A DNA stretch of 64,000 nucleotides from positions 1,402 to 65,401 of the forward strand of contig JAZNJR010000003.1 of assembly GCA_045578165.1 (NCBI GenBank), given 5' to 3'. Shown here in pieces: positions 1 through 14,457 of this stretch. Every line of letters begins with the position of its first letter. Positions within the stretch are counted from its first letter, which is position 1. The notes under the pieces were generated by a model. That model made no database searches. It was not told the origin of the DNA and saw nothing but the letters and a program-made list of their open reading frames with translations. This DNA is from Acutalibacteraceae bacterium. GTDB taxonomy: Bacteria > Bacillota > Clostridia > Oscillospirales > Acutalibacteraceae. The translations under genes and the position numbers were made by a program.

Positions 1-771
1 ATAGTTTGTAACTTCTTTTTCGCCACAGGTTGCACAGGTTTTAGTGAAAGAACCTGCTACTTCACAGGTAGATTCAACTGTTACACCTTCATCCCAAGCG
101 TGACCGGTAGCTTCTAATGCAGTGGTGGTTTCATCGCCGCACAAAGAACATACCTTTGTTTCAGAACCGGCTTCTGTACAAGTAGCAGGAACAGTGTTGG
201 TTACTTGATAGTCATGTTCGCAACCGGAGTCATCAACAGCAATAACAAAAGTAATTGTGTTGAGGTAAAGACGAATGTCACCATTGCTGGGCTTATAGGA
301 TGCAACGTTTAAAGTTTTGGTTGCAGTGGTATCAACTTCAACGTCTGTGTATGTACCGCTGTCTGAAGTGGTACTAATTACTGTAGAAACATCATTAATT
401 TTAATGCCACCGGCTTTAGAATAACGTCCTGCTACTGAAAAGATAACTTTAGTAACGTTTTCAGGAACGGTAAGTGTAAATTTGCCGGCAGCTGCGCTTG
501 AGCCCAACTTTATAATAGCAAATTTGCTTGCATCGAATGATCCGGGATACATTTTGTCTGCACCGGTAAGATTCAAGGTGTATTCTACACCGTCAGAACC
601 GGTTACGGTTTCAGTGTAAGTGGTTTTTGCGGTGGAGTTTTCTTTTGCAGCAGTACCATCAGTACCAAAAGTGAATACTGCGGTTGCTTCAGCAGCAGAC
701 GCGCTGAAAGCCATGGGCACAACTGCAAGCAGTAATGCCACTGTCAAAAGAATTGACAAGATTTTTTTCAT
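1..771 (-). CDS. secreted protein, N-terminal 257 aa (rest of the gene lies beyond the left edge)
   Basis: Missing from the ORF track because it is open at the window edge. The reverse complement of 771-742 reads ATG AAA AAA ATC TTG TCA ATT CTT TTG ACA (MKKILSILLT), followed by VALLLAVVPMAFSASA (signal peptide). I checked all 257 triplets down to position 1 and found no in-frame stop. The visible C-terminal part has two TC(T/E)xAGSxTKxCxxCG motifs separated by ATGH. Confidence 0.7.
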   Translation of the reverse strand, partial: MKKILSILLTVALLLAVVPMAFSASAAEATAVFTFGTDGTAAKENSTAKTTYTETVTGSDGVEYTLNLTGADKMYPGSFDASKFAIIKLGSSAAAGKFTLTVPENVTKVIFSVAGRYSKAGGIKINDVSTVISTTSDSGTYTDVEVDTTATKTLNVASYKPSNGDIRLYLNTITFVIAVDDSGCEHDYQVTNTVPATCTEAGSETKVCSLCGDETTTALEATGHAWDEGVTVESTCEVAGSFTKTCATCGEKEVTNY

Positions 772-835
772 TTTTTGTTTTCCCCTTTTTTATTTTTTTA
801 TAAGTTAGGAAAAAAGCTTTCCCCTTATACAATAC

Positions 836-864
836 ATTATATATATTGCTTGTCCGAAAAGCAA
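836..864 (-). promoter_or_regulatory. candidate sigma-A promoter for the secreted-protein gene
   Basis: On the minus strand: TTGCTT (864-859), 17-nt spacer, TATAAT (841-836), about 65 nt upstream of the ATG at 771. Confidence 0.3.
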
Positions 865-1224
865 GTTTTAAAGAAGCAAAAATGCCCAAAAATTTAAATT
901 TCGGCAAAATTGACAAAAGGTGCTAAAAATTATTGCAAGTTATGTTTAAATTAGCAAAACGAACAAGCATATTTTGTGTTTTGAAAGCACGAAAAATTAT
1001 ATATATTGTGTTTTTTTGTGTTTTAAAGATCAATATGTATGGTGTTAAGTTAAAAAATCGCAAAAAACGGTTATATATAATAGGTGTAGCAAGTTTGAGC
1101 GTGACGATTAAATTGGGGTTTATCGCTGACGCGATTAATTAATAAATAATAAAGAAGAAATAAGATTTTTAAAAAAGGTTGCAAGATTTTAAAATGGTGG
1201 TAAAATGGGTGTGGTGATTTAAAA

Positions 1225-2184
1225 ATGGAATATTTATGGATTCCCGCGCTCGTTTTGGCAGTACTTGTTGCCGCGGTGTTTATAATCGCATACGTTTGTT
1301 TTAGAATGGCCTTTTTTGAACCCGACCGCAAACCAAATGAAGAAACCGCAATAATAATGCCAACGGGCGAAATTTATGAACAATTTCGTGAAAAAATTGA
1401 AAAATGGACCCTTGAAACCCGACAACTTCCTCATGAAGAGGTTTGCATAACCTCTTTTGATGGGCTTAAGCTTTACGGTAAGTTTTACGAGTATGCGCCA
1501 AACGCACCAATGGAAATTATGTTTCACGGTTATCGCGGTTGCGCGGAAAGAGATTTGTCCGGCGGGGTGCAACGTTGCTTTAAGCTTGGCCGCAGTGCGT
1601 TAATTGTTGAACAACGCGCAAGCGGTAAAAGCGAAGGAAACGTTATTTCTTTCGGTGTTAACGAACATAAAGACTGTCTTTCGTGGGTGGATTTTGCAAT
1701 TAAGCATTACGGACGCGACTGCAAAATTATTTTAACAGGCATTTCAATGGGTGCCGCAACCGTTTTAATGGCGGCAGGAAAACCTTTGCCTCAAAACGTA
1801 ATTGGTGTTCTTGCCGACTGCGGTTATACTTCGGCAAAAGATATTATAAAAATTGTTATAAAACAAATGGATTTACCACCCAAGCTTGCCTACCCGTTTG
1901 TAAAATTGGGCGCACGGGTTTACGGTCACTTTAATCTTGAAGAAACACCGCCTGTTGAAGCGGTAAAACGCGCCGCGGTGCCGGTGATTTTCTTTCATGG
2001 CGAAGCTGACGATTTTGTGCCTTGTTATATGAGTCGTCAAAATTTCGAGGCGTGCAATTCACAAAAAATGCTCGTCACGGTGGAAAACGCAGGACACGGG
2101 CTTTCTTACCCTGTTGACCCGCAGAAATACTTTGACGCTTTAAAGGAATTTTTTGGGCAAGAAGCGTCGGCTTTCAAGTGGTAA
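1225..2184 (+). CDS. membrane-anchored alpha/beta hydrolase (serine hydrolase fold)
   Basis: 319 aa. N-terminal TM helix (IPALVLAVLVAAVFIIAYVCF), nucleophile elbow GISMGAAT (GxSxG), and later D and H (FFHGEADDFV, NAGHGLS). GGTGA-type RBS about 8 nt upstream. Confidence 0.8.
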   Translation: MEYLWIPALVLAVLVAAVFIIAYVCFRMAFFEPDRKPNEETAIIMPTGEIYEQFREKIEKWTLETRQLPHEEVCITSFDGLKLYGKFYEYAPNAPMEIMFHGYRGCAERDLSGGVQRCFKLGRSALIVEQRASGKSEGNVISFGVNEHKDCLSWVDFAIKHYGRDCKIILTGISMGAATVLMAAGKPLPQNVIGVLADCGYTSAKDIIKIVIKQMDLPPKLAYPFVKLGARVYGHFNLEETPPVEAVKRAAVPVIFFHGEADDFVPCYMSRQNFEACNSQKMLVTVENAGHGLSYPVDPQKYFDALKEFFGQEASAFKW

Positions 2185-2250
2185 TTTATTAACATTAAAA
2201 TATTTGTGTTACAAATATTTTATATTATAAAGTAATTTGCATAAAAAAAT

Positions 2251-2285
2251 AAAAGCACCGACCTAATTAGTCGGTGCTTCTTTTA
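2251..2285. terminator. bidirectional rho-independent terminator hairpin (left copy of the repeated tRNA-Gln terminator)
   Basis: Stem GCACCGAC (2255-2262) / GTCGGTGC (2270-2277), 7-nt loop, A-run upstream and T-rich tract downstream. Lies about 70 nt after the hydrolase stop and is part of the direct repeat with 13087-13121. Confidence 0.55.
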
Positions 2286-2329
2286 TGGCTGGGGAATAGG
2301 GATTCGAACCCCAACAAACAGAGTCAGAG
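2286..2329 (-). pseudogene. tRNA-Gln 3' fragment (44 nt, anticodon loop to CCA), att-type direct-repeat copy
   Basis: Identical to 13122-13165 of the complete tRNA-Gln. Identity ends exactly at the 5' edge of the anticodon loop, and there is no 5' half. Confidence 0.85.
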
Positions 2330-3035
2330 GTAAGGAATATTATATTTTTTTAGTAAAGTATAAAACGGTAAAAACTCTTGTAAACCCACATAAATAAAGG
2401 GCTTGCAAGAGTTTTTTTACAAAAAATTTAGCTAATGACGGCCGTTGACAACTGTTGAAAGCGATGTTGGGGGGATTTTAGGGGGGAATTATTAAAAAAT
2501 AGTTTTAAAAATCCGTTTGAGAGAAAAAACCTATCCAAAACGCAAAATCCATTGTTCTATCCCCATATTCATGGCCAAAAATCTGCATTTTAGTAGCATG
2601 ATTTAATAATCAGTATGTTACAACCCTAATTTTTTCTATATATTTAACACCAAATAAATCAAGAAATCTATATATTTTATTATTTTAGAAGATACTTTTT
2701 TTAGCTTTGGCAACATATATAATATGCGTGCGTGATTTTCAAATTTCAAAAATTTTTTTCTTTTTGCGAAATGACCTTGTTTGATTTCTATGTAATATAA
2801 TGTATATTCCAAAATGTATATTAGCACTTTATGGAGACCGTTTTCATTAATTTGAAGGTGGTCTTTCTTTTTTTTATGGGTTTATAGCCGCTACCGTGCG
2901 TTTGGGGCTGTATTTCCTTAAGGAAACAGTTGCAGAACGAGTTAACGCTGTTAGGCAATATAAAACCCTTCCTAAGAAAACGGTGTCATTTCTTTTGGGT
3001 TATGGCTTCTTTATTTTTACTTTTTTGATTATATT

Positions 3036-4034
3036 CTAAGCCATTGTTTCAAGCATTTTTATGCTGACTTCGTAATTAGTATGATTACCTTCGGTATAAT
3101 TTTTAAATTCATCATACATATATTCCGACATTCTATACATTTCATTACCGAAACTTCCCGCCACGTGAGGTGTTAAAATACAATTAGGTAACGTGTAAAA
3201 TGGATGTTCAGCTTCGGGTGGCTCGGGTAACGTAACGTCCAAAACGGCGGTAATATCAGGGCGGTTTGTAAGCGCGGTTACCAAATCGTTTTCTACAACC
3301 TGCGCTCCACGACCTGTATTTAAAAACGTAGCATAAGGCAACATTGAATTAAAATGTTCAAATTTTAGCATACCCTTAGTTTCTTTATTGTCGGCAAGAT
3401 GATTTGAAATTACTTGACATTCTTTAAAAATAGTGTCGAGCGATACTTTTTGAACGCCAAGTTCATTAGCTGTTTCATCGGGCAAGAACGGGTCAAAAAC
3501 TAAAACTTGTAAATTATATGCCTTTAGCATATTTATTACTAATTTTCCAATCATTCCTGCACCGATTATGCCAATCTTTACACCATAATTTCCCGGACAG
3601 GCTTTAGAAAATTCACGTGCTCTTTCGTAGTAACCATTTTTAGTAAGCATACTACTTTGATAAAAACCTTTGTTTGCCAAGATTATATTTGCTACGGTAT
3701 ATTCAGCAACGGGAATAGCATTTGCAGCCCAAGCCGAAAAAACCTTTACACCACATTCTAAAAACGGCTTTGCAAATTTTTTCACCGAGCCTGCGGCATA
3801 AAAAACACATTTTAAAGATGGAAAAATCCCCTTAATTTCTTCATTTGTGAAGGTTGGCATATCCCACGTTGAAAAAATATATTCGGTATCTTTAAAAATT
3901 AGCTTATTTTCTAAAACCTCTGCTTTGTTATAGCAAACACCATCAGATCCACTTTCTTCAAGGGTTTTAATAACGTTTTTACTGTAAACACGACTGAAGG
4001 TTTCTTTTTCGGAACAAATAAAAGCAATTTGCAT
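3036..4034 (-). CDS. D-isomer-specific 2-hydroxyacid dehydrogenase family protein (NAD-binding)
   Basis: 332 aa. Rossmann motif GIIGAGMIGKLV, then NTGRGAQVVENDL and ILTPHVAGS, typical of the family. Last gene of the minus-strand operon. Confidence 0.85.
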   Translation of the reverse strand: MQIAFICSEKETFSRVYSKNVIKTLEESGSDGVCYNKAEVLENKLIFKDTEYIFSTWDMPTFTNEEIKGIFPSLKCVFYAAGSVKKFAKPFLECGVKVFSAWAANAIPVAEYTVANIILANKGFYQSSMLTKNGYYERAREFSKACPGNYGVKIGIIGAGMIGKLVINMLKAYNLQVLVFDPFLPDETANELGVQKVSLDTIFKECQVISNHLADNKETKGMLKFEHFNSMLPYATFLNTGRGAQVVENDLVTALTNRPDITAVLDVTLPEPPEAEHPFYTLPNCILTPHVAGSFGNEMYRMSEYMYDEFKNYTEGNHTNYEVSIKMLETMA

Positions 4035-4043
4035 TTTTATCCC

Positions 4044-6344
4044 TCACAAATTATATTTTTTTATTGTAACGATTATTTTTTCATTTTTAATATTTTTGCC
4101 GTAAATCGCTATCTTTTTATATTGAGAATTATCTTTATGCGGTTTGCTTTGAATTTCTTTTCTTAACGGTTCGCAATCCATAATAAGAATTTCGGCATTC
4201 GCGTTTGTTGAAAGTGAAAATATTATGGCTTTGCCGTTTTGCGAAAGTTTAACAGTATTTTTATCAAGGACTGTTATTTGCGCTTTAGTATGGAAGAACG
4301 AATATATTTCAGAATCATCTTCCAGATCAAATTCATCACAAATACAAAATTCGGTACGGTTGTTTAAAAGAGCAAACTTACGTGTAACCTTTTTTGCATT
4401 ATCATAAGCAGTTGTTAAATCAACAACACAAAATGCAGAATCCGCTTTAGAATCAAACTCAATTATATCACAAACTGCGTTGGGGTTTTGGTCGGCAAGG
4501 CAATCACTATTATAGGGGTTAATTACAATAGTGTTATTACCCTCGGCACGTTTGCGGTAGTAGTTCCACCTGCCTGCATTTTTGCCGTATTCCCACATAC
4601 CGGGCATATCGTATTCCTCTATGCCGAGCTCAACAAACCAACGCTCACCCAACGTTTCAAACACAAAGGAGCCAAAATCAAGGTCCATATGACAGCTTTT
4701 AGCACCGCCCTTAAAACCAACGTAAATGCTGTTGCTATCGGTGTTAGAGCCCCTTAAATTACCAAGGTTGCCTAAAAAATAATCGGTTGGCGCTTTTTCT
4801 AAATAATTGTTACTCAGCATATCTTCTTTGAAGAAAATAAGGTCTTGGTAACTGTAAGTTTGCGGTTTGTTTTCTAAATAAAACTGTGCGTAGTCATAGC
4901 GGTTATAAAGCTGTGCCAACCACATAAGCGACGGCGCTACAACGTTTGTATCGGGCTTTGCATCATAATAATTAAAACATTCCCTGGTGTTGCCCGTCAT
5001 AGAAATTATATAATCACCCGTTGTATCAAGCCCTTTGACGTCGCGCATTCCAAAATCGGTGCCAAGCGCTTTTATAAGCGATGCCTCATAAATATAAAAA
5101 TTGCTTTGACCATAATTCCAATAATTAGGGCCTTCGGTATAAACGCCGCGAGGGGAGAGGGTTTTGAGATTAAGAAAAATCGCCTCAATTGTGAGATTAA
5201 TAATTTCGTTTGAAATTCCCTCACAACCTTCTTCATCACCAATTGCAAGTCCCAAAAGTCCCAAACCCGAAGAGGTAACGGTGTTATGGTTTGTGTCGTT
5301 ACACGCAAACTGCTTCTTTTGGCGCAACTGGTTAATCATTGCTTCCATACCATTTTTAAGCATACCGTTTCGCATTATGCGTTTTTCTTCTTCGGTCCAT
5401 TCATCATAAAGCCAGTCGTAAGCAATTGCAACAGGTCGCGCCATATCACCTACGTCAATATCGTGTGTGGGGTTCCAATCGGGGAAACGGCAAACAGATA
5501 AAACCTCTTCCCTTGCTCTATCTTTATATTTTTTGTCACCGCTTATTATATACGCAATAAGTAGATACGGTACGTTAAGTAACGCCTGTCTTGAAAGACG
5601 TCTGCCGTCGGATAATTCGTGGCAAATTACAGGTAAATTTAAAGCATTATCGGCTTTTTTAAGCGCGTCTTTACAAGCTTCATTCATAAAAGGTATGGTT
5701 TTAGTATAATGCTTTATGTTATTAAAATCTTCCCTTGTTGCTATAAGTCTTGGGTGTGCTTTATTTGGAAAACGTTCTTTTAAAAGTGATATTGCATCGT
5801 ATTTTTGCGGTTTAATTCCTTCAACGCGATAATCGGTATTTTCATCCACTTCAATAAATCTTTCTTTCACGTCGGGCAGGGGGTCATTTGTAACCCAAAC
5901 ACTGTCAAGCGCTATTTCGGTTTCCGTTGGGGGAAGGCAATAAAAGGGCTGCAAAAAACCATAACCGGTTATTTTTTCGTAGCCGTTTTTAGGGCTACCG
6001 TTTGTAACAATACCCTTAAAAAGTGGGAAGGTTAAAATCTTATGCCCCGACCACGAAACAGTAAAATGATATGTGTAACAGGTTTTGTTAATATCGGTGT
6101 CTTCGGTAAATGCTTGAAAGCAAATAACTGCGTGGGAGGGATTTTTTGAATATATGGAAAGCTGTAAATAATTATAACCTGTCCAACTATCGTTGGCTTT
6201 TTTTATAAACATTTTATTTTCTTTTATTGAATTATTAGAAAACAAAATGGCATTTTTACCTATAAATTTTTCATCGCTTATAATCGGAAAATTGTATTCA
6301 TCAGATTTAGCATTAGAAAAATCAAGAATGACTTTTTTATCCAT
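4044..6344 (-). CDS. heparinase II/III-like (polysaccharide-lyase fold) protein, no signal peptide, with an N-terminal ~170-aa extra domain
   Basis: 766 aa. NHNTVTSSGLGLLGLA and EGPNYWNYG in the helical toroid part, and CHMDLDFGSFVFE (H-x-D...F) in the C-terminal sheet domain, as in the heparinase II/III / alginate-lyase superfamily. The N-terminus MDKKVILDFSN is not a signal peptide. Confidence 0.7.
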   Translation of the reverse strand: MDKKVILDFSNAKSDEYNFPIISDEKFIGKNAILFSNNSIKENKMFIKKANDSWTGYNYLQLSIYSKNPSHAVICFQAFTEDTDINKTCYTYHFTVSWSGHKILTFPLFKGIVTNGSPKNGYEKITGYGFLQPFYCLPPTETEIALDSVWVTNDPLPDVKERFIEVDENTDYRVEGIKPQKYDAISLLKERFPNKAHPRLIATREDFNNIKHYTKTIPFMNEACKDALKKADNALNLPVICHELSDGRRLSRQALLNVPYLLIAYIISGDKKYKDRAREEVLSVCRFPDWNPTHDIDVGDMARPVAIAYDWLYDEWTEEEKRIMRNGMLKNGMEAMINQLRQKKQFACNDTNHNTVTSSGLGLLGLAIGDEEGCEGISNEIINLTIEAIFLNLKTLSPRGVYTEGPNYWNYGQSNFYIYEASLIKALGTDFGMRDVKGLDTTGDYIISMTGNTRECFNYYDAKPDTNVVAPSLMWLAQLYNRYDYAQFYLENKPQTYSYQDLIFFKEDMLSNNYLEKAPTDYFLGNLGNLRGSNTDSNSIYVGFKGGAKSCHMDLDFGSFVFETLGERWFVELGIEEYDMPGMWEYGKNAGRWNYYRKRAEGNNTIVINPYNSDCLADQNPNAVCDIIEFDSKADSAFCVVDLTTAYDNAKKVTRKFALLNNRTEFCICDEFDLEDDSEIYSFFHTKAQITVLDKNTVKLSQNGKAIIFSLSTNANAEILIMDCEPLRKEIQSKPHKDNSQYKKIAIYGKNIKNEKIIVTIKKYNL

Positions 6345-6359
6345 TTAAAAAACTCCCGT

Positions 6360-7103
6360 CTATTTTGCAATCAATTTTAGTGCATTGCTTTCATTTTTAA
6401 GGGTTTCAATTTTATCGTCGGGCATAAACTCCAAAAGCAATGTTTTATCGCTTTCAAAGCACTGTAAATATTCTTTCCAGCTATCAATATCATCGGCTAA
6501 CGGAAGACGATTATCACCCTTCCAATTAAAAACGTGAATATATTTAACATAGTCGCTTATATTTTTAGCATAGAAAATATTTTCTTCAAAGCTTAACAAC
6601 TGTTGTGGTTGCCAATACATTAAAAACGCCTTACTGTTTACTGCTTCCATAAGTTCTAAAGCCGATTTTTCGGTGTTTGTATAGGTGCCGTTATGGCATT
6701 CCATACAAACCGTAACTGCGTTTTCTTCAGCGATAGCGGCAACGTTTTTACATTCGTTAAAAAGTGCGGTTTTTTCATCCTCGCTATAATCCTGCGAATT
6801 TTTATTTCCACACCAAAGTCTTAAAACGTTAGTCCCTAAAATTTTAGCGGCGTATATATATTCTTGCAATTCTTCCTTAGGGGTTACACCAATTTTGAAA
6901 TACGTTCCGTAAGAACTGCATTTTATATTATATTCCTTTTGAAGATTTGCAAGGTTTTTAAGTTTCTCTATATCTTTCTGCGGTGCGTGAACGTCACTTC
7001 CCCATTCGATATATAAAAGACCTGCATTTTTCATTTCGGTCAATATTTCTTGCGGTGTGTTTTTTCTGAAAGAAATAGAACAAAGTCCCAAATTAAAGCT
7101 CAT
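6360..7103 (-). CDS. sugar phosphate isomerase/epimerase (xylose-isomerase-like TIM barrel) family protein
   Basis: 247 aa. The pattern IEWGSDVH ... LRLWCG ... CMECHNGTYT ... IHVFNW fits the AP-endonuclease-2 / xylose-isomerase-like barrel family. 16 nt upstream of the lyase-like gene. Confidence 0.7.
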   Translation of the reverse strand: MSFNLGLCSISFRKNTPQEILTEMKNAGLLYIEWGSDVHAPQKDIEKLKNLANLQKEYNIKCSSYGTYFKIGVTPKEELQEYIYAAKILGTNVLRLWCGNKNSQDYSEDEKTALFNECKNVAAIAEENAVTVCMECHNGTYTNTEKSALELMEAVNSKAFLMYWQPQQLLSFEENIFYAKNISDYVKYIHVFNWKGDNRLPLADDIDSWKEYLQCFESDKTLLLEFMPDDKIETLKNESNALKLIAK

Positions 7104-7261
7104 TTATATCACCCATTTCAATATGGAGTTTATCGTTGTTGATTTTATGCACACGACCAAGACCGCGCTTTTGCGATATATTCGTGGATTTGCTCAAGAG
7201 TATATGCCGACAGCGATTTTTCCATTATAACAAGATAAATTTTTTATTTTTCTTGTTATCT

Positions 7262-9160
7262 TTAAAAAATATTTTTGTTTTCTCTATACTGTTTCCACAC
7301 GTTTTCAAAAAAATCGACGTTTTGGGGTATTGGTCTTACGTTTCGCCAAGAGGATTCAAAACCGTTTTTACAAAGTACGGTTTCTTGAACTTTATTGCGG
7401 GTATTTCCGTTTTCTTCGTTAAAACGGAACGTTTCTTCAAGCCCGTCACAAAGCTTACCGTTTTTATCAAAATAAAGCGCCGAACCTCTTGTATCACCAA
7501 CGGTTTGGGAATAATTGATCATAGCGTTTAAAACTGCGCTTTGCGTGTAAAGTATATCCTTTAGCTTATAGTATTTATAAACCTCAGAATTATCCTTAAC
7601 ACCCACCTTGTAAAGCTGTGAAATTTCAAGCTTAATTTCTTCCAAAGCTTTGCACATGGCATCAACGTTTCTAATAGCAGCCGCACAATCGCTCATTCTT
7701 CTTTGCGCGTTTTCTATATAACCTTCTACATTGTTGGTATTAGCTATAACGTTAAAAATTTCGGCTTTGGCATTGTTTTTGGCATTAGTATAAATTTTTT
7801 CAAAAATACCGTCATCAATCGCAGTATTAGCATTTTGTGATATATACTGTGCCGCACGAAGACCACCTACTTGACCCGCGTTAAGTGCCGAGCCACCCGG
7901 TCTTGTAATACCGTGCGTGCCCGCACATTCACCCGCACAAAACAAACCCTTAATGTTTGTTTGCCACCACATATTAACCGCAATACCACCGTTGTTATGC
8001 TGAGCGCAAAGTGCAATTTCGAGGTATTCCTTAGTAAGGTCAACACCCTTGCTTTTATATAATTCAATAGCAGGGGTATTCATTTTAAACAGTCTTTCTA
8101 TTGGTGTGCCAAATAAAGCATTCGCGTTATTTAAATATTCAAAAGCTTCCTTAGACAATTTACTATACTCGATATTTATCATATTAAACGGATTTTTCGT
8201 AAAGTCAAGGTAAACCTTGCGTTTTTTTAAAACACACTCGCGATAAACGAGTAAATCGATTATCGACGACCCCGTAAGCACCTTTTTAGAATCAAACGGC
8301 CATTGATAACCTTTTAAAAATACCATTGAAAGCGCTTCGTATTTGTCGCTAAAATAATCGGCTAAAAATTCGTGTTCATTTTTGTTTTCGTCAATAGACA
8401 CAAAGCGGGGGAGCACCTGCATATAAGTGCCCGAAACGTTCCAACGCGGGTTTATAGATGCCAAACCGTACTGCCATTCGGTTAAATTTTGTGCTTTAGC
8501 ACCCGCTAAAAGTGCCAAGCTTGTAGTACCTGTGTGACATTTTGGAAATACACTGTCGGCGTAAATTCCCGCAGGGCCACCCGTACACATTACAATATCC
8601 GCACACTTAAATGCAACAAATTCGCCGCTTTGCTTTTCTAAACATAAAAGCCCGCAAACGCCGTTATCGTGCTTTAGTATTTCAACGGCAAGATATCCGC
8701 TAAAGGTTGGAATATTTAAATTTTCGGCATTCTTTTGCAATGCCTCGGTCATAAATTTAGAGGTTAACGGTCCTGCCGAGGTTGCGCGTGCATAGGGGTC
8801 GTGGTCGGTTTTATAGCCGACGTATTCACCGTATCTATTAACGGGAAAATCAACACCTAATTCGCACAAATTCATAAACGACCTTACCGATAAAGCCGCC
8901 TCGCAAAGCGCGTTATCACCGTCGACACTACCGCCCGCAAAAAGATTTTCAGCCATTTTATAAATACTGTCGGGGCTGTCACCGCCAAGACCCAACTTGT
9001 AGTAGGTTTGCTTGTCACTGCCTGTATTTCGCGAGGTGCCGCAGTTGGTGGCTTCGGTAACGATTGCAACGTTTTTATTAAATTGTTTTAAGCGGCAAGC
9101 GGCATTGTAGCCCGCAGCGCCCGTACCTATTACTATAGTATCAAATTTAAAAAGCTTCAT
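7262..9160 (-). CDS. FAD-binding oxidoreductase of the fumarate reductase / succinate dehydrogenase / L-aspartate oxidase flavoprotein superfamily
   Basis: 632 aa. N-terminal dinucleotide fold DTIVIGTGAAGYNAA, plus GLFCAGECAGTHGITRPGGSALNAGQVGG, which resembles the conserved FAD-domain segment of Frd/Sdh flavoproteins. Its ATG overlaps the SDR stop (TAATG). Confidence 0.75.
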   Translation of the reverse strand: MKLFKFDTIVIGTGAAGYNAACRLKQFNKNVAIVTEATNCGTSRNTGSDKQTYYKLGLGGDSPDSIYKMAENLFAGGSVDGDNALCEAALSVRSFMNLCELGVDFPVNRYGEYVGYKTDHDPYARATSAGPLTSKFMTEALQKNAENLNIPTFSGYLAVEILKHDNGVCGLLCLEKQSGEFVAFKCADIVMCTGGPAGIYADSVFPKCHTGTTSLALLAGAKAQNLTEWQYGLASINPRWNVSGTYMQVLPRFVSIDENKNEHEFLADYFSDKYEALSMVFLKGYQWPFDSKKVLTGSSIIDLLVYRECVLKKRKVYLDFTKNPFNMINIEYSKLSKEAFEYLNNANALFGTPIERLFKMNTPAIELYKSKGVDLTKEYLEIALCAQHNNGGIAVNMWWQTNIKGLFCAGECAGTHGITRPGGSALNAGQVGGLRAAQYISQNANTAIDDGIFEKIYTNAKNNAKAEIFNVIANTNNVEGYIENAQRRMSDCAAAIRNVDAMCKALEEIKLEISQLYKVGVKDNSEVYKYYKLKDILYTQSAVLNAMINYSQTVGDTRGSALYFDKNGKLCDGLEETFRFNEENGNTRNKVQETVLCKNGFESSWRNVRPIPQNVDFFENVWKQYRENKNIF

Positions 9161-9885
9161 TATAATCTCCTAATATGGAAACCGCCGTCAACGTCAATCG
9201 ACTGACCCGTAACGTATGGTAAGCTACCGTTACAAAGTGTCCAAACAGCACTTGCAATATCTTCGGGTTTGCCCCAACGTTTGATTGGAAGTAAACCATC
9301 GTTAATAAGTGCGTCATACTTTTCTTTTACCTTGTCGGTCATACCTGTTGCAATTATGCCGGGGCGTATTTCGTTTACCATAATGCCATATTCGGCAAGG
9401 CGGTCGGCAAAAAGGGTAGTTATCATAGTAACACCCGCTTTACTGATACAATATTCACCTCGACTAACCGAGCTTGTATAACCCGACATTGAAGAAATAT
9501 TTACAATACTACCCGACTTTTCTTTTTTCATAATATTTGCGACAGCTTGAGTTAAAAACAAAGTGCCCTTTGTGTTAATATTCATAACAAAGTCGTATGA
9601 TTCTTCGGTCATTTCAAGAATATCGTTTCTAACCATTGGGGCAACACCTGCAACGTTTACAAGTATATCAATCCTGCCATATTTATCCATTGCGGCTTTA
9701 ATATAGCTTTCGCGTGATTCTTTACTGCTTAAATCACCTTTAAAATATGTAAATTCACCCTCTAAAGCATTAGGCATTTCGGGTAAAACATCCATACCAA
9801 CAACAGCAACGTTGTTTTCAAGTAAAAGCTTTGCAGTAGCAAAGCCAATACCACCCGCTACTCCTGTTACTAACGCTACTTTCAT
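9160..9885 (-). CDS. short-chain dehydrogenase/reductase (SDR)
   Basis: 241 aa. TGVAGGIGFA (TGxxxGxG), NISS, YCISKAG (YxxxK). Its start overlaps the upstream stop (TAATG). Confidence 0.9.
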   Translation of the reverse strand: MKVALVTGVAGGIGFATAKLLLENNVAVVGMDVLPEMPNALEGEFTYFKGDLSSKESRESYIKAAMDKYGRIDILVNVAGVAPMVRNDILEMTEESYDFVMNINTKGTLFLTQAVANIMKKEKSGSIVNISSMSGYTSSVSRGEYCISKAGVTMITTLFADRLAEYGIMVNEIRPGIIATGMTDKVKEKYDALINDGLLPIKRWGKPEDIASAVWTLCNGSLPYVTGQSIDVDGGFHIRRL

Positions 9886-11219
9886 TATTTAAAACCTCCG
9901 CATTGTTTTTCGTAAATGGGCATATATATTTCTTTATCTCTTATAACGCAACCGGGTGTACCGCCTGCACGCATAATTTCTGTACACTTAGAGCAACAAA
10001 GGCAAATTTTATTTTTGTCCATAAAGCCGTTTTTAATAATATCATTTGCAAAATTGGGGTATGCAAAAATTGTTCTGCCAAAGCCCGCAAAATCAAATTT
10101 ATTGTTTTCAATGTATGCCGCTGCAACGTTTGGTGCCGCAACCCCTAAATATGAAATTGCCGAGCATATTATAGCCATTTCGGGGTTTAATTCTTTAAGC
10201 TTTGCGGTGGCATTTAAAATTCGTTCAACCCCTTTGAGCGGATGCTCGGGGGCAGTGTAGCCACCTTTCGCATAAGGACGGTTTACATGCGGATTAAAAT
10301 AAGGGTTACCCATAGTGATATTCAGTAACCTTACACCGTATTTGTAAAGTTCTTTTATTAACCAATCGGGCTCGGTTTCATCAAAATCTATGCTTTCGTC
10401 TTTTTTTACACCAAAGCCGTAGGGGTAGGGAAAACCGTCGTAAATATTTAAACGCGAGGACACAATAAAATCCTTTGAACAGCTTTCAATCGAACCTTTT
10501 ATACTTTCGCGCAAAAGTCTTGTTCGGTTTTCCAAGCTTCCGCCATATTTACCGTCGCGCATAAAGGCAGACAAAAGCTCTGAATTTAAGTATCTATGGC
10601 AGCACTTAATATCTACACCGTCAAATCCTGCTTTTTCGGCAAGTATAGCACCATTAATTAACGAATCGCGAACTCTATCAAGATATTCATCGGTTACTAT
10701 TTTTCTTTTATCTATGGGGTTATCCTTTTCAAAAATTGGATTATTATATGCAATAAGCGGTGCGGGAATGCCGTTCGGCTTTGAATATCTGCCCGAATGT
10801 GTTGCCTGCATAATAACAATTGGCTCGTACCCGTTTTCTTTTAGTGCCTTTTCTTTTATACTCTCAACCTGTTTTTTAAAATCGTCAAGGTTATTATTGT
10901 TAATGTGAAGCTGATGTGGGTTTGCTTTACCTTCCTCCATTACTGCGGTGGCTTCAAACCATATAAGCCCTGCACCACCCGTAGCAAGTCGTTCATAGCG
11001 CCTTTTTGTAAGTGTATCGGGCGAGCCGAATTTAGTACCGTCGCACCCCTCCATAGCTTGACATATGAGGCGGTTGGGCACTTTTTTGTTACCAATAGTT
11101 AGTGGCTTTTTTAAAACATCTATATCATTAATAAATGGTAAAGCTGTGCCTGTTTCTAAATTTTCCTTTAAAAATGCCTCTTTATTAAAATAAACCGAAT
11201 TAGCCATATAACAACCCAT
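9885..11219 (-). CDS. Old-Yellow-Enzyme-like NADH:flavin oxidoreductase with a C-terminal 4Fe-4S motif, lacking the NAD(P)H/FAD C-terminal domain
   Basis: 444 aa. OYE barrel signatures (CQAMEGCDG, ATHSGRYSKP, GFDGVDIKCCHRYL). C-terminal CLCCSKCTEIMRAGGTPGC matches the Cx2Cx2Cx11C cluster of the 2,4-dienoyl-CoA reductase / enoate reductase / BaiH-type family. The start may instead be the ATG at 11207. Confidence 0.75.
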   Translation of the reverse strand: MGCYMANSVYFNKEAFLKENLETGTALPFINDIDVLKKPLTIGNKKVPNRLICQAMEGCDGTKFGSPDTLTKRRYERLATGGAGLIWFEATAVMEEGKANPHQLHINNNNLDDFKKQVESIKEKALKENGYEPIVIMQATHSGRYSKPNGIPAPLIAYNNPIFEKDNPIDKRKIVTDEYLDRVRDSLINGAILAEKAGFDGVDIKCCHRYLNSELLSAFMRDGKYGGSLENRTRLLRESIKGSIESCSKDFIVSSRLNIYDGFPYPYGFGVKKDESIDFDETEPDWLIKELYKYGVRLLNITMGNPYFNPHVNRPYAKGGYTAPEHPLKGVERILNATAKLKELNPEMAIICSAISYLGVAAPNVAAAYIENNKFDFAGFGRTIFAYPNFANDIIKNGFMDKNKICLCCSKCTEIMRAGGTPGCVIRDKEIYMPIYEKQCGGFK

Positions 11220-11274
11220 TTTCTTTATTATTTTACATTTATTGTAAATGAAATTTAAAACAATATATATATCT

Positions 11275-11303
11275 ATCTTGCTGAAAAATATGTAAATCTT
11301 GCT
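11275..11303. promoter_or_regulatory. direct repeat ATCTTGCT x2 with 21-bp period in the divergent promoter region (candidate AraC-type operator)
   Basis: ATCTTGCT at 11275-11282 and 11296-11303, lying between the operon start (11219, minus) and the AraC start (11359, plus). A TATAAT lies at about 11320. Confidence 0.3.
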
Positions 11304-11358
11304 TTTTTGTAAAAATATATTATAATAATTACAGTATTGTTTTAAAGGGGAATTGTTT

Positions 11359-12153
11359 ATGACACCAATTCTTGCGGCAAGGTATTCTGTATCAAATTCT
11401 ATACCGAGAAAATCACCGCATTATCACGATTCGCATCAGTTATTATATATAGCCGAGGGCAGTGCTGAAATTACAATAGATGGTAAGCAGTATCTTGCCG
11501 AAAGCGGTGCGCTTATTGTAATAAGCCGACTTGAAATGCACTCTATAACGGTAAAAAGCAATACTTATAAACGGTATGCGCTTCGTATAAATCCGGAATA
11601 TACCCCTAACCATAATATCGGTTATCTTTATTCGGTGTTTGTAAACCGACCCGCGGGCTTTAGCCACGTTATATATGCGAACGAAAAGCTTGAAAGCATT
11701 ATTTCAAACATTGTGAATGAATATAATAATTGCGAAATGCTGTCAGAAGAAATGCAAAGCTTGCTTTTAGAGGAATTGTTAATTTCTTTGTATCGCAGCA
11801 GTCCAAATTCGTTTGCCGCAAATGACCGTAAAAACGAAATAGTAGACGATATTTGCAAAAAAATAAAAAATAATTTAAATGCAAAAATTTCGTTGGCTAT
11901 GCTTGCGAAAAGCGCGCATTTAAACGAATATTATCTTTCACATATTTTTAAATCGGTTACGGGTTATTCGATTATGGGGTATGTGATGTCATTAAGAATA
12001 GCCACCGCTAAAAGAATGTTAACAAAAACCGAAATGTCGATTAGTGAAATAATTGAATATTGCGGATTTTCAGATGGTAGTAATTTTAGCCGTACTTTTC
12101 GCAAAACAACAGGCGTTTCACCTAGCGAATTCCGAAAAAATTTTAAAAAATAA
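11359..12153 (+). CDS. AraC family transcriptional regulator (cupin sensor + HTH)
   Basis: C-terminal AraC HTH (LAKSAHLNEYYLSHIFKSVTGYS ... IEYCGFSDGSNFSRTFRKTTGVSPSEFR) and an N-terminal cupin-like domain. The start is moved from the track's TTG (11353) to the ATG at 11359, which sits 8 nt after AAAGGGG. Confidence 0.85.
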   Translation: MTPILAARYSVSNSIPRKSPHYHDSHQLLYIAEGSAEITIDGKQYLAESGALIVISRLEMHSITVKSNTYKRYALRINPEYTPNHNIGYLYSVFVNRPAGFSHVIYANEKLESIISNIVNEYNNCEMLSEEMQSLLLEELLISLYRSSPNSFAANDRKNEIVDDICKKIKNNLNAKISLAMLAKSAHLNEYYLSHIFKSVTGYSIMGYVMSLRIATAKRMLTKTEMSISEIIEYCGFSDGSNFSRTFRKTTGVSPSEFRKNFKK

Positions 12154-12470
12154 TTTTAACTTATCTCTAAATATAAGTGATAAACGTTTATCATAAATTT
12201 TAAACCATATAACAACAAAAATTTCAGCGTGCCAATAAAGAAGTTATAACCTTTGAGTTTTGACGATTAAATTATTAAGCAGAGTGGCATGTCACACATA
12301 AAATAGTGTGGCATGCCATTAGTGTAATAGAATTGTAAATATTAATTAATCATATTTTGTAATGAGTAACTGGCATAGGCCCAGTCCTCGTTTTTGTTTT
12401 TCATGATGCCGGAATCATCATAAACAATACTAACAATTTTTTTGATAGTCTTGCTTTCAGTATTAGCAGT

Positions 12471-12797
12471 GACATTAATTACACAGAAAGAAACTGGAAT
12501 ACCACTTTAAGAACTATGGACATATTAAACGGTGCAAAGGTGTACCGCAATAAAGTGGTAGAATCCACAATACCTTATAAGGATAAGTTAACACCTTATA
12601 ATTTGCGTCATACATACTGCACTATGCTGAATGATTGCAACATAAGTGAATACTTCAAGAAGCGTCTTATGGGACATACATTATCCGATTCTATAACGGA
12701 TAGTGTTTACACCCACTCCTCTGAGGGAAAAATAATAAGAGCGGCAAAGCCGTTCTTAACTCACTTTCAAAAACTATTCGCCCAAGCGTTGAAATAA
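12471..12797 (+). pseudogene. tyrosine recombinase (integrase) C-terminal fragment
   Basis: Only about 100 aa. LTPYNLRHTYCTML ... RLMGHTLSDSITDSVYTH carries the conserved R, H and catalytic Y region of the tyrosine recombinase catalytic domain. The N-terminal ~250 aa are absent. The frame is open from 12366 but upstream residues look unrelated. Confidence 0.7.
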
Positions 12798-12905
12798 CAT
12801 AAAACGACCTTGTTATCCTTAATTGGATTTCAAGGTCGCTGTTGTTATAGTTTTAAACTTCAAGGGGGAATCAGGGGGGAAATACTAATTTTCAGGCAAA
12901 AAAAT

Positions 12906-12934
12906 AAACAGCAGGTCTTGAAAACCTACTGTTT
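12906..12934 (-). terminator. hairpin plus T-run following the X-Gln element (minus-strand sense)
   Basis: AAACAGCAGGT / ACCTACTGTTT stem (one mismatch), with an A-run at 12895-12905 on the plus strand, which is a T-run after the hairpin on the minus strand. Confidence 0.4.
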
Positions 12935-12938
12935 ATGC

Positions 12939-13066
12939 TGGCTGGGGAATAGGGATTATTCAGGCGCAACGCGCCTTCCGCCTCGCTTAGCTCGTTGCCC
13001 ACGTCGGCAAAAACAGTTCCCCGAACTGTTTTCTTCCGCTTCGCTCCCTCCTTGTTCGAATCCCTT
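12939..13066 (-). other. X-Gln: ~128-nt structured element ending in a 19-nt copy of the tRNA-Gln 3' end (miniature integrative-element relic or ncRNA)
   Basis: In minus-strand sense it reads AGGGATTCGAAC...two hairpins...AATCCCTATTCCCCAGCCA. 12939-12957 is identical to 13122-13140 of tRNA-Gln. Homologous to 13428-13551. Confidence 0.45.
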
Positions 13067-13086
13067 TTAAGTTTTACATAAAAAAT

Positions 13087-13121
13087 AAAAGCACCGACTT
13101 AATTAGTCAGTGCTTCTTTTA
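13087..13121 (-). terminator. rho-independent terminator of tRNA-Gln
   Basis: In tRNA sense: CCA-TAAAAGAA-GCACTGAC-TAATTAA-GTCGGTGC-TTTTATTTTTT. Confidence 0.7.
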
Positions 13122-13195
13122 TGGCTGGGGAATAGGGATTCGAACCCCAACAAACAGAGTCAGAGTCTGTCGTGCTACCGTTACACAATTCCCCA
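13122..13195 (-). tRNA. tRNA-Gln: tRNA-Gln (anticodon CTG), CCA encoded
   Basis: Hand-folded. Acceptor TGGGGAA/TTCCCCA, D stem GTGT/GCAC, anticodon stem ACAGA/TCTGT with loop CTCTGAC (anticodon CTG), T arm TGGGG-TTCGAAT-CCCTA, discriminator G, CCA. Confidence 0.9.
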
Positions 13196-13213
13196 AAATT
13201 TGATAACAAAGTT

Positions 13214-13241
13214 ATTATAACCGATTTTTTGGCTTTGTCAA
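13214..13241 (-). promoter_or_regulatory. consensus sigma-A promoter for tRNA-Gln
   Basis: On the minus strand: TTGACA (13241-13236), 16-nt spacer, TATAAT (13219-13214). The tRNA 5' end lies about 18 nt downstream of the -10 box. Confidence 0.55.
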
Positions 13242-13261
13242 GCCGATTTTTTAAAATAGTC

Positions 13262-13290
13262 TTGAATTTTTCGGTAATTTATGTTACCAT
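13262..13290 (+). promoter_or_regulatory. candidate promoter for tRNA-Ala
   Basis: TTGAAT (13262-13267), 17-nt spacer, TACCAT (13285-13290). The tRNA starts 13 nt later. Confidence 0.35.
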
Positions 13291-13303
13291 AAACACGTTG
13301 TAC

Positions 13304-13379
13304 GGGGGCGTAGCTCAGCTGGGAGAGCGTTTGACTGGCAGTCAAAAGGTCATGGGTTCGATCCCCACCGTCTCCACCA
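13304..13379 (+). tRNA. tRNA-Ala: tRNA-Ala (anticodon GGC), CCA encoded
   Basis: Hand-folded, 76 nt. Acceptor GGGGGCG/CGTCTCC with the G3:U70 alanine identity pair, D arm GCTC-AGCTGGGA-GAGC, anticodon stem TTTGA/TCAAA with loop CTGGCAG, T arm ATGGG-TTCGATC-CCCAC (A49:C65 mismatch), ACCA. Confidence 0.88.
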
Positions 13380-13380
13380 T

Positions 13381-13423
13381 ACACACAAACTTCACATTTA
13401 AGTGTTGTTTGTGTGTTTTTTTA
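13381..13423 (+). terminator. rho-independent terminator of tRNA-Ala
   Basis: ACACACAAAC (13381-13390) pairs with GTTTGTGTGT (13407-13416), followed by TTTTTTT. Confidence 0.7.
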
Positions 13424-13427
13424 TTTT

Positions 13428-13551
13428 GTGGTGGGGATCGAACAAGCCGTTTAAAACAACAGTCCGGTGGACTGTTGTTTAGGCGCGGCAACGAGCGAAG
13501 TGAGGCGATAGGTGCGGGTAGCACCGAGACAAATCCCCACCGTCTCCACCA
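13428..13551 (+). other. X-Ala: ~124-nt structured element ending in a 19-nt copy of the tRNA-Ala 3' end (homologue of X-Gln)
   Basis: GTGGTGGGGATCGAAC...hairpin 13454-13480...GGCAACGAGCGAAGTGAGGCG (13487-13507)...hairpin 13511-13525...ATCCCCACCGTCTCCACCA. 13533-13551 is identical to 13361-13379. Confidence 0.45.
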
Positions 13552-13556
13552 AAAAA

Positions 13557-13590
13557 GCACCGACTAATTAAGTCGGTGCTTTTTGTTTTT
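13557..13590. terminator. bidirectional terminator (after X-Ala on plus, after the CE4 gene on minus)
   Basis: GCACCGAC-TAATTAA-GTCGGTGC flanked by an A-run (13551-13556) and a T-run (13580-13590). The CE4 stop codon is at 13589-13591. Confidence 0.65.
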
Positions 13591-14446
13591 AAAAAGTAAG
13601 GGTTTCGCCGGGTTTAATTGTGTATAATTTACCGTCTATATCCATCCAAATTTGTTTAAGGGTGGGGTTGTAAATTTTGCTGCTGTCAGCACTGAAAACC
13701 AAAGAATTATATGCGTTTACATATTCGTAAATTTCAATATTTGTTGCATACCAGGTGTCTTCCTTGCCGCTTAATTTTTCACAAATTTCTTCAATGCGTT
13801 CCCAGTTGTTTTTTTCATGGAATTCAAATGAATGCCCCCATAAATAAAAGAGTTTGGGCTCACGGCGGGCGTGATAAGACTGTTCTTTTAAGTCGACAAA
13901 TTTTTCCACAAGCTCTATGGTTTCTTTATCGTCGTGGTGTGCTGTTGGCATCCATTGATACCAGTCTTGCGGTAAACTAAAGCTGTCGTTAATTTCGCCT
14001 AAAGTTCGAGCATAAACAATGTCAAGTTCTTTAAGATAATGTGAAATATTTTCAATATTTGCACCGTTTTGGAACTGACGAATACCTGTGTCGGGGTAGG
14101 CAAGACCGCGAACAATCATATTAAAGTCTTTTTCAAGACCAAGACGACATTTTAAAACGTCCTGAATACCGTCAATTGTCCTTAAATTACCGTTTGCACG
14201 GTGTTGTGCACCGTGTGTGGCAATTTCGTGACCTGCGTCAACAATATTTTTTTGAATTTCTTCTTTTGTTAAATGCCAGTCCTGTTCGTTTTTGCCAAAC
14301 CAATCACTATTAAGGTTAAATGTGCCTTTAAGCCCATATTTATTAAAAATTTCGGCAAGTCGAATGTCCCAGCGGCAACCGTCATCGTAGCTGAAGGTTA
14401 CTGCTTTAAATTTACCTTGCGGGAAACGTAAAAAACGATATCTCAT
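13589..14446 (-). CDS. polysaccharide deacetylase family protein (CE4 / NodB-like), no signal peptide
   Basis: 285 aa. FSYDDG (Asp-Asp motif) and ATHGAQH (His-His motif) of the NodB homology domain. Confidence 0.75.
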   Translation of the reverse strand: MRYRFLRFPQGKFKAVTFSYDDGCRWDIRLAEIFNKYGLKGTFNLNSDWFGKNEQDWHLTKEEIQKNIVDAGHEIATHGAQHRANGNLRTIDGIQDVLKCRLGLEKDFNMIVRGLAYPDTGIRQFQNGANIENISHYLKELDIVYARTLGEINDSFSLPQDWYQWMPTAHHDDKETIELVEKFVDLKEQSYHARREPKLFYLWGHSFEFHEKNNWERIEEICEKLSGKEDTWYATNIEIYEYVNAYNSLVFSADSSKIYNPTLKQIWMDIDGKLYTIKPGETLTF

Positions 14447-14457
14447 AATAACACCTA

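Follow-up and report, generated by a model that had tools for sequence, protein, structure and literature searches.

The anticodon-centred attP class, also called class A, is the commonest in Islander, where it accounts for 2083 of 3919 islands, and Williams 2002 is cited in that paper (PMC4383910; PMC100330). A described island with a tRNA-Gln target is PYG1 of Pyrococcus yayanosii, which extends over 21.4 kb between a partial and a complete tRNA-Gln(TTG) and has 44-bp direct repeats (PMC9897764). The present analysis deals with a 64,000-nt stretch of DNA from an Acutalibacteraceae bacterium (GenBank assembly GCA_045578165.1, contig C3:1402-65401), referred to here as the window, whose genome comprises 1.72 Mb in 66 contigs and was estimated to be 97% complete by marker genes, with 3.8% contamination. 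Positions 2330-12939 of the window (10,610 bp) are very probably a genomic island that is located in the anticodon loop of a tRNA-Gln(CTG) gene, and has decayed and become fixed; a small cassette now separates it from the gene and rather probably arrived later. An anticodon-loop island in a tRNA gene is a kind of element already known, and this one is an ordinary, decayed and immobile representative; the comparisons given below demonstrate the island family and its target, the position of both junctions, the truncated integrase and the presence/absence pattern. Two further descriptions provide the context for its decay and for the cassette. The concept of cis-mobilizable elements (CIMEs), developed by Pavlovic, Bellanger and colleagues, covers decayed islands, cis-mobilizable or fixed, which keep their att sites without recombination genes, while the tRNA-linked repeats of E. 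coli are units situated behind tRNA genes and ending in the last 18-19 nt of the preceding tRNA.

A repeat search of the window revealed a direct repeat of 86 nt at 2244-2329 and 13080-13165, in which 84 of the 86 positions are identical (98%). The two mismatches, at 2263/13099 and 2273/13109, both fall within the terminator half of the repeat, and beyond this core a weak similarity, including a 1-nt indel in an A-run, continues out to about 2231/13067. The repeat is composed of 42 nt of an intrinsic terminator and the 3' 44 nt of tRNA-Gln(CTG), and the identity breaks off at the first base of the anticodon loop (7 nt, CTCTGAC), at canonical position 31|32; read in the sense of the tRNA, the repeat half in the gene shows that it opens with these seven bases. 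Its right copy reaches into the intact tRNA-Gln(CTG) (13122-13195, minus strand; ARAGORN and Rfam), of which positions 32-76 (13122-13165) lie within the repeat, and its inner half is the terminator of this functional gene, named here termB (13080-13121, minus strand; terminator scan). In front of the gene lies a consensus sigma-70-type promoter (TTGACA-16-TATAAT, 13241-13214, minus strand) with 12 of 12 hexamer matches. The left copy contains a displaced 3' fragment of tRNA-Gln with positions 32-76 (2286-2329, minus strand), the distal att core of the island, which recurs as an identical 44-nt fragment in two other genomes of the genus, G162 and G185, and its outer half is a terminator copy behind the fragment, termB' (2244-2285, minus strand; terminator scan), which is 95% identical to 13080-13121. 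An earlier sequence-only reading of this DNA had already described the repeat with its two mismatches and the A-run indel, its composition of a terminator and the 3' 44 nt of the tRNA, the stop of identity at position 31|32, and the consensus promoter of the intact gene at the right copy, and on all of these points it agrees with our results.

In accordance with the Islander definition, an intact tRNA-Gln and a displaced fragment of it are present on the same (minus) strand, and identity between island and target is continuous from the anticodon loop to the 3' end, as is typical for class A. From the boundaries of this identity block we infer that the crossover took place at the anticodon loop. 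The island resembles the class A islands of Islander in that its ends are marked by a regenerated tRNA and, in direct orientation, a displaced 3' fragment, the remains of a tyrosine integrase gene lie at the tRNA-proximal end, the block of identity extends from the anticodon loop to the CCA end, and the cargo varies between members. It differs from them in that the integrase is cut to its last 124 residues and that 182 nt of cassette sequence lie between the island and the tRNA. With PYG1 it shares the tRNA-Gln target and a 44-bp repeat covering the anticodon loop to the 3' end, an analogy drawn from the description only; PYG1, however, is archaeal, uses another isoacceptor and carries other cargo.

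The tyrosine-integrase remnant is located at 12372-12797 on the plus strand including the stop (coding to 12794) and aligns in tblastn and BLASTP with residues 276-399 of an intact 401-aa integrase from G162 at 63% identity. It retains the HxxR, H and Y motifs as LRHT, MGH and VYTH, and PF00589 was matched with 21 bits (E 2e-4) as opposed to a cut-off of 27.1 bits. An integrase gene was clearly once present here and is now non-functional. Since its stop lies 325 nt from the 3' end of tRNA-Gln, it corresponds to the C-terminal recombinase fragment that had been noticed about 325 bp from the tRNA. A six-frame search of 200 genus genomes with the remnant as query yielded, in addition to the intact relative in G162, a 353-aa relative with 44% identity adjoining tRNA-Gln in G073, and a protein search with the G162 integrase returned about 45 relatives. 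The six loci fetched for three of these relatives, as well as G162 and G078, have one layout, always at tRNA-Gln(CTG). A protein search for intact relatives and their att sites, as proposed in the sequence-only reading, has in this way defined a 401-aa integrase family at tRNA-Gln(CTG) with a 44-nt att repeat.

At the six loci, the integrase stop is followed by a hairpin, the sequence GGGGGGATTT(T)AGGGGGGAAAT, a terminator hairpin AAAACAGCGGGT...ACCCACTGTTT, and the intact tRNA-Gln(CTG) on the opposite strand, and the distance from the stop to the tRNA end is 140-150 nt in the relatives compared with 143 nt to position 12940 in the window. The order in the window is the same, with the stop at 12797, the integrase terminator hairpin at 12805-12838, a double G-tract at 12864-12884, a further terminator hairpin, termA, at 12904-12936, and finally TGGCTGGGGAATAGGGATT at 12940-12958; the right arm of the island formed in this way (12799-12939; terminator scan) is found in the same order and with the same spacing in seven relatives that have intact integrases. 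The last of these elements, on the minus strand, is a third partial copy of the tRNA-Gln end, 19 nt long and comprising positions 58-76, which the sequence-only reading had left aside; according to the alignment with the relatives, the island has its proximal junction here, and the cassette its distal end. The right junction of the island is placed at 12939/12940, about 180 bases inward of the first reading, because all seven relatives continue into the rest of the tRNA there and the window, which leaves the tRNA after position 58, continues into unrelated sequence.

The sequence-only reading had recognised a decayed tRNA-Gln island of about 10.9 kb, with its right boundary at 13066/13067 and the whole 86-99-nt unit of terminator and tRNA 3' half as att repeat. 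Its core, the decayed island in tRNA-Gln, was retained, while the extent has to be reduced to 10,610 bp and the att length to 44 nt. An island of 2330-13066 could draw on the 98% identity of the 86-nt repeat and on the position of the intact tRNA within its right copy. It is nevertheless very unlikely, as the arms of the seven relatives end at the CCA end of the tRNA, which is 12940 in the window, as the repeat in G162 and G185 is 44 nt long with host-side terminators unrelated to the tRNA-side ones, and as 12959-13079 belongs to a repeat family that is found behind six other tRNA/tmRNA genes and behind the tRNA-Gln of island-free relatives. Because the att repeat also measures 44 nt in G162, G185 and G073, the terminator portion of the 86 nt does not count as an att feature. 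The att repeat proper of this island is 44 nt, and the terminator part belongs with the cassette; the 86-nt repeat is a composite, an overlap of two duplications with different causes. A long staggered cut with target duplication was also considered as the source of the 86-nt repeat and is unlikely, since termA on the island side differs from termB.

Sister islands occur in several genomes of the genus. In G162, contig C36 has the tRNA-Gln fragment at 10955-10998 and the intact gene at 44654; the fragment has the same 44 nt, and next to it lies a non-coding arm with 92% identity to the left arm of the window (2330-2547, where a hairpin spans 2371-2415 and a double G-tract 2469-2491). The right arm is 86% identical to that of the window, the cargo between the arms is wholly different, and the host-side terminator is unrelated to that of the window at the equivalent place. 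One host gene that was compared is about 76% identical in the two genomes, and because the identity of the arms is 86-92%, the movement of the arms postdates the split of the species. In G185, the same 44-nt fragment lies beside an unrelated island end, with a host-side terminator that is again unrelated to the tRNA-side one, and in the fragment of G073 the identity reaches another four bases and includes one mismatch. The boundary at the anticodon loop is consequently common to four islands, which are of three kinds. An origin by local rearrangement or segmental duplication without site-specific integration (a segmental duplication unrelated to the tRNA had been named in the sequence-only reading as a finding that would speak against an island) could be suspected from the terminator sequence being present three times locally (2251-2282, 13087-13118 and 13553-13584) and from the rearranged locus in G184. 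It is contradicted by the comparative data and can be regarded as extremely improbable: the boundary is exactly at the anticodon loop in four independent islands, the integrase remnant comes with arms typical of the family, and the arm repeats occur nowhere else in the genome. As a separate observation, the integrase in the G162 sister island (G162:C36:20993-44654) is located 22 kb away from the tRNA, with about 22 kb of other genes between its terminator hairpin and the end bearing the G-tract and termA, and the G162 island is either composite or has gained an insertion.

The G-tracts are of interest as possible binding sites. The motif GGGGG-N4-7-GGGGGGAA occurs twice in the window, at 2469-2488 and 12864-12881, and these are also its two occurrences in the 1.72-Mb genome, none being expected by chance. 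Both copies are on the same strand, one on each arm; in the circular form, the 44-nt core would lie between them, about 55 nt from one and 140 nt from the other. According to the alignment, the double G-tract is kept in the relatives with intact integrases. The island of G073, with its 44% identical integrase, has a different double repeat GTGGGAAAAGTGTGGGAAATTT on both arms at corresponding places, which reads GTGGGAAAA(A)GTGTGGGAAATTT. We regard the double G-tracts as candidate arm-type integrase sites that appear to co-vary with the integrase, and what characterises a heterobivalent system is seen here at the level of sequence, namely repeated motifs on both arms that differ with the integrase.

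In the intact relatives, the module upstream of the integrase consists of an 81-aa gene, a 161-aa gene and the gene of a 243-aa replication-initiator/DnaD-like protein; in the neighbourhoods examined, this module contains the replication-initiator-like and small proteins without conjugation genes. The stop of the 81-aa gene overlaps the integrase start in intact relatives (L050 5458-5703, L053 9759-10004), and its product, for which neither Pfam nor PHROG gave a match, may be an excisionase or directionality factor. With tblastn, no remnant of the 81-, 161- and 243-aa proteins was found in the window, no N-terminal integrase remnant anywhere in 1-16600, and no further integrase of this family or of the G073 family in the assembled genome. 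Inspection of the small open reading frames (ORFs) in 2330-3035 gave no plausible excisionase; ORF and Pfam searches found no remnants of replication, conjugation or phage functions in the island, Pfam giving just metabolic enzymes, an AraC regulator and the integrase remnant, with no relaxase, coupling protein or type IV secretion genes, and there are no phage structural, packaging or lysis genes among the ORFs of 2330-12939. The earlier impression of a fixed element without xis, conjugation or phage genes was therefore upheld by the ORF, Pfam and tblastn searches. Because no integrase of the family is left in the assembled genome, the island is fixed and removable only via homologous deletion between the repeats. 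Like CIMEs, it has kept both att repeats and lost a functional integrase and excisionase. Unlike CIMEs, it has no related intact element in its genome, as judged by tblastn, that could act in trans.

What remains between the arms is metabolic, as had been stated in the sequence-only reading: all larger ORFs between the repeats encode metabolic enzymes or an AraC regulator according to Pfam. A six-gene operon on the minus strand (3036-11219; ORFs and Pfam) codes for a 2-hydroxyacid dehydrogenase, a heparinase II/III-like protein, a xylose-isomerase-like TIM barrel protein, an FAD-binding oxidoreductase, a short-chain dehydrogenase and an OYE-like flavin oxidoreductase, and an AraC-family regulator of the cargo follows on the plus strand (11353-12153; Pfam HTH_18 and AraC_binding). 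Clusters homologous to this cargo are found at 65-77% identity elsewhere in the genus genomes G014, G011, G019 and G020.

The comparison with related genomes that had been suggested to verify the island revealed island-free loci in L023/G189, G024 and G184. The left host flank of the island is an alpha/beta hydrolase gene (1225-2184, plus strand; Pfam), whose orthologues adjoin the tRNA-Gln locus in these relatives and whose homologues bear names of uncultured Oscillospiraceae/Clostridia, and on the other side of the intact tRNA-Gln follows a tRNA-Ala(GGC) (13304-13379, plus strand; ARAGORN and Rfam). The closest relative found is L023 (GCA_045580625.1, apparently also G189) with 78-90% identical flanks, in which the order is hydrolase, a gene for a 100-aa membrane protein, a 261-aa gene, the remnant of a small element, terminator, tRNA-Gln and tRNA-Ala. 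In G024, it is hydrolase, 100-aa gene, about 300 nt, small element, terminator, tRNA-Gln and tRNA-Ala. Nothing resembling 2330-12939 is present at the locus in L023/G189 or G024. The empty site foreseen in the sequence-only reading, hydrolase, terminator and tRNA-Gln in direct succession, was not encountered, as the relatives carry the additional 100-aa gene and, in L023, the 261-aa gene. Because neither gene has a homologue in the genome of the window, this genome has lost host DNA beside the island. The exact displaced 44-nt fragment is present in 3 of 212 genus genomes, which represent one genome per species, many of them incomplete, and are a sample rather than a census. The pattern is that of a mobile island, with empty targets in relatives and with sister islands carrying other cargo in G162 and in metagenome contigs.

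The 182 nt that separate the junction at 12939/12940 from the real tRNA consist of the 19-nt tRNA copy, termB and a small non-coding, tRNA-linked cassette, defined by family comparison (12959-13079, minus strand), with a core at 12959-13053, an inverted copy of the T-loop and T-stem at 13054-13065 and a spacer at 13066-13079. Read on the minus strand, 12940-13079 comprises the spacer, AGGGATTCGAAC, which is the reverse complement of tRNA positions 53-64, the hairpin-rich core of 95 nt and the exact copy of positions 58-76. With Rfam, nothing in the arms or the cassette was above the threshold, and just the two tRNAs passed. The cassette family is found at seven tRNA/tmRNA loci of the genome, namely Gln, Ala, Gly, Arg, Ser, Leu and a putative tmRNA 3' end, the latter being read from its sequence, as ARAGORN called no tRNA there. 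In the window, the Ala-linked cassette is located behind tRNA-Ala at 13429-13553, and the other cassettes of the genome are at C16:33084-33194, C41:15982-16088, C48:22782-22907, C11 about 35090-35230 and C7:26839-26949. They are roughly 110-190 nt long with cores that are 82-91% alike between different tRNAs of the genome, and every cassette opens with an inverted T-loop/T-stem of the gene preceding it. The six tRNA-linked cassettes end in the last 18-19 nt of their own tRNA, starting from position 58, and the one at the putative tmRNA end has a tail of about 10 nt only. At the Gly, Arg and Ser loci, a copy of positions 58-76 together with the terminator is present on both sides of the core, which results in repeats of 60-90 nt.

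A Gln-linked cassette is also present in G024, G019, G003, G008 and, truncated, in L023, where termB is kept at 90%. The core in the window is of the G003/G008 type and the core at the same place in L023 of the G024 type. In G162, the displaced fragment is followed by a terminator, a spacer, a degenerate inverted T-arm and a diverged core. The cassettes are like the tRNA-linked repeats of E. coli in that the units end in the last 19 nt of the tRNA and that tandem stacking is possible, and unlike them in their conserved hairpin-rich core and the inverted T-arm copy, the likeness being one of description only. Side by side with these results, tandem cassettes with two core types were seen downstream of tRNA-Arg(TCT) in G024 (L062, G024:C7) and G184 (L061, G184:C15), where each unit has its own terminator. 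The two genomes are unlike in the order of the core types, and a truncated unit is found both in G184 and in the genome of the window. The inverted T-arm after the second terminator at tRNA-Arg was considered as a pre-existing target and rejected, as G024 and G184 show a second, truncated tandem cassette starting there; no cassette-free orthologue of the tRNA-Arg locus was obtained, the synteny within the genus being too poorly conserved. At L023 6040-6300, a direct repeat of 61 nt with a single mismatch brackets the Ala-linked cassette; it is made up of the 3' end of tRNA-Ala from the T-loop onward, the terminator and another 15 bases.

The proposed history begins with a circular island whose attP would have contained a copy of tRNA positions 32-76, the termA hairpin and double G-tracts on both arms. 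A phage-type tyrosine integrase of about 401 aa very probably integrated it into the anticodon loop of tRNA-Gln(CTG), by which the host's original positions 32-76 and termB' would have been displaced to the far end, now 2244-2329, and the tRNA gene rebuilt with the island's own copy of 32-76. Later, a non-coding cassette made up of positions 58-76, termB, spacer, inverted T-arm copy and core would have entered the T-loop of the rebuilt tRNA between positions 57 and 58, so that the island came to lie 182 nt from the gene; the entry of this cassette, with termB, would account for a visible repeat of 86 nt instead of 44. After integration, the first 275 integrase codons and the upstream module were lost, the redox/lyase operon and the AraC regulator were left as surviving cargo, and the host 100-aa gene beside the hydrolase was lost as well.

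That the island came first and the cassette second is what we infer as the rather probable order, because the identity block of positions 32-76 and the situation in G162 point to an anticodon-loop crossover in the real gene, because every cassette starts its tRNA copy at position 58, and because core types differ between close relatives. In the reverse order, a cassette with flanking copies of 58-76 and termB would have been resident, and the island would have entered its 19-nt pseudo-tRNA tail by a crossover within 58-76. A single step from a canonical cassette locus would then yield the observed arrangement, the Gly, Arg and Ser cassettes are indeed flanked by 60-90-nt repeats of 58-76 and terminator, and the far-left segment 2244-2304 resembles such a distal repeat. 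However, the identity block from position 32 in the family and in two other island types would be needless for a crossover at position 58 or beyond, the tail is without the anticodon stem-loop that an anticodon-class integrase would bind, and the difference between the G003/G008-type core of the window and the G024-type core of L023 argues for cassette turnover. Moreover, the G162 island occupies the real tRNA, and a diverged unit resembling a cassette has been displaced behind the fragment. Integration into a cassette-bearing tRNA should leave the cassette behind the displaced fragment, which G162 appears to match, as expected if the integrase uses the real tRNA despite a resident cassette; in the window, by contrast, the cassette is on the side of the tRNA. 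Entry of the island into the tail is the less likely course of events.

Several points nevertheless weigh against our interpretation of the locus as an island in the anticodon loop followed by a cassette. The Gln cassette being common to several species (G024, G019, G003, G008 and L023) could mean that the cassette came first, as could the locus in G184, where core, 19-nt tail and termB are contiguous, as if an island had been set into the tail. The crossover position is placed by the edges of the identity block only. The polymorphism of the island is seen between species only; conspecific contigs were sought by exact-protein match with the hydrolase, a deacetylase and the cargo dehydrogenase, and none were found. 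The compositional deviation, for which a check had been proposed in the sequence-only reading, is real but mild: the GC content of the island is 36.6% compared with 38.6 +/- 1.5% in genome windows of the same size (7th percentile), and its tetranucleotide distance is at the 96th percentile of genome windows. This mild shift fits a cargo with its nearest homologues (65-77%) in the same genus. Finally, the assembly is fragmented, and with its 66 contigs and 3.8% contamination, and with repeats of 44-86 nt that can mislead short-read assemblers, a chimeric contig could have been joined through the tRNA/terminator repeat, in which case the island would not truly lie beside the hydrolase. Such an artefact is hardly credible, since the two terminator copies differ at two positions and hence were not collapsed, the junctions of fragment and left arm and of right arm and tRNA tail each recur in independent assemblies, and the order of the flanks agrees with L023 and G024.

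The locus is a routine tRNA-gene island, of use chiefly for annotation: an uncharacterised family of integrases from gut or rumen Clostridia, with tRNA-Gln(CTG) as the target, is defined together with its att core, candidate arm sites and variable cargo, and the redox/lyase operon is marked as horizontally acquired and now fixed in the genome. For the mapping of islands, it illustrates that fragment-based methods overcall an island by about 180 bp where a tRNA-tail cassette shares the gene, and that a composite repeat can be mistaken for a long att site. An island next to a cassette is also a natural test of cassette movement. Tentatively, the cassettes may be true mobile elements, moved by a T-loop-specific recombination activity that prefers the functional gene over the displaced fragment. 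If this were true, the cassette would be a self-contained unit carrying a terminator (termB) that was not copied from the local downstream sequence, which is the island's termA, and the locus would record a dated cassette event, making the cassettes no mere island scars.

Some further observations concern the neighbourhood of the locus. In G184 (L080, G184:C4:6000-12500; 3080-4420), the pair of tRNA-Gln and tRNA-Ala lies in inverted orientation with respect to the hydrolase and 100-aa genes, and a two-gene insert (118 aa and 140 aa) is present between tRNA-Gln and its cassette. In the window, terminators of near-identical sequence stand in inverted orientation around the tRNA pair (13079-13124 and 13546-13591) and could be the mediators of a G184-type inversion. 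In G024 (L017, G024:C14, 730-800, minus strand), a truncated pseudo-tRNA-Ala GGGGGCGTAGCTCAGCTGGGAGCGCGAAGCACTCAAAGTTGAACCCCACCAC is located between tRNA-Gln and the intact tRNA-Ala. Upstream of the hydrolase, a 57-nt sequence at 1109-1165 of the window has further copies on contigs C30 and C16 of the same genome (95% identity) and in many places in G184 (about 89%), and represents another short dispersed repeat family.

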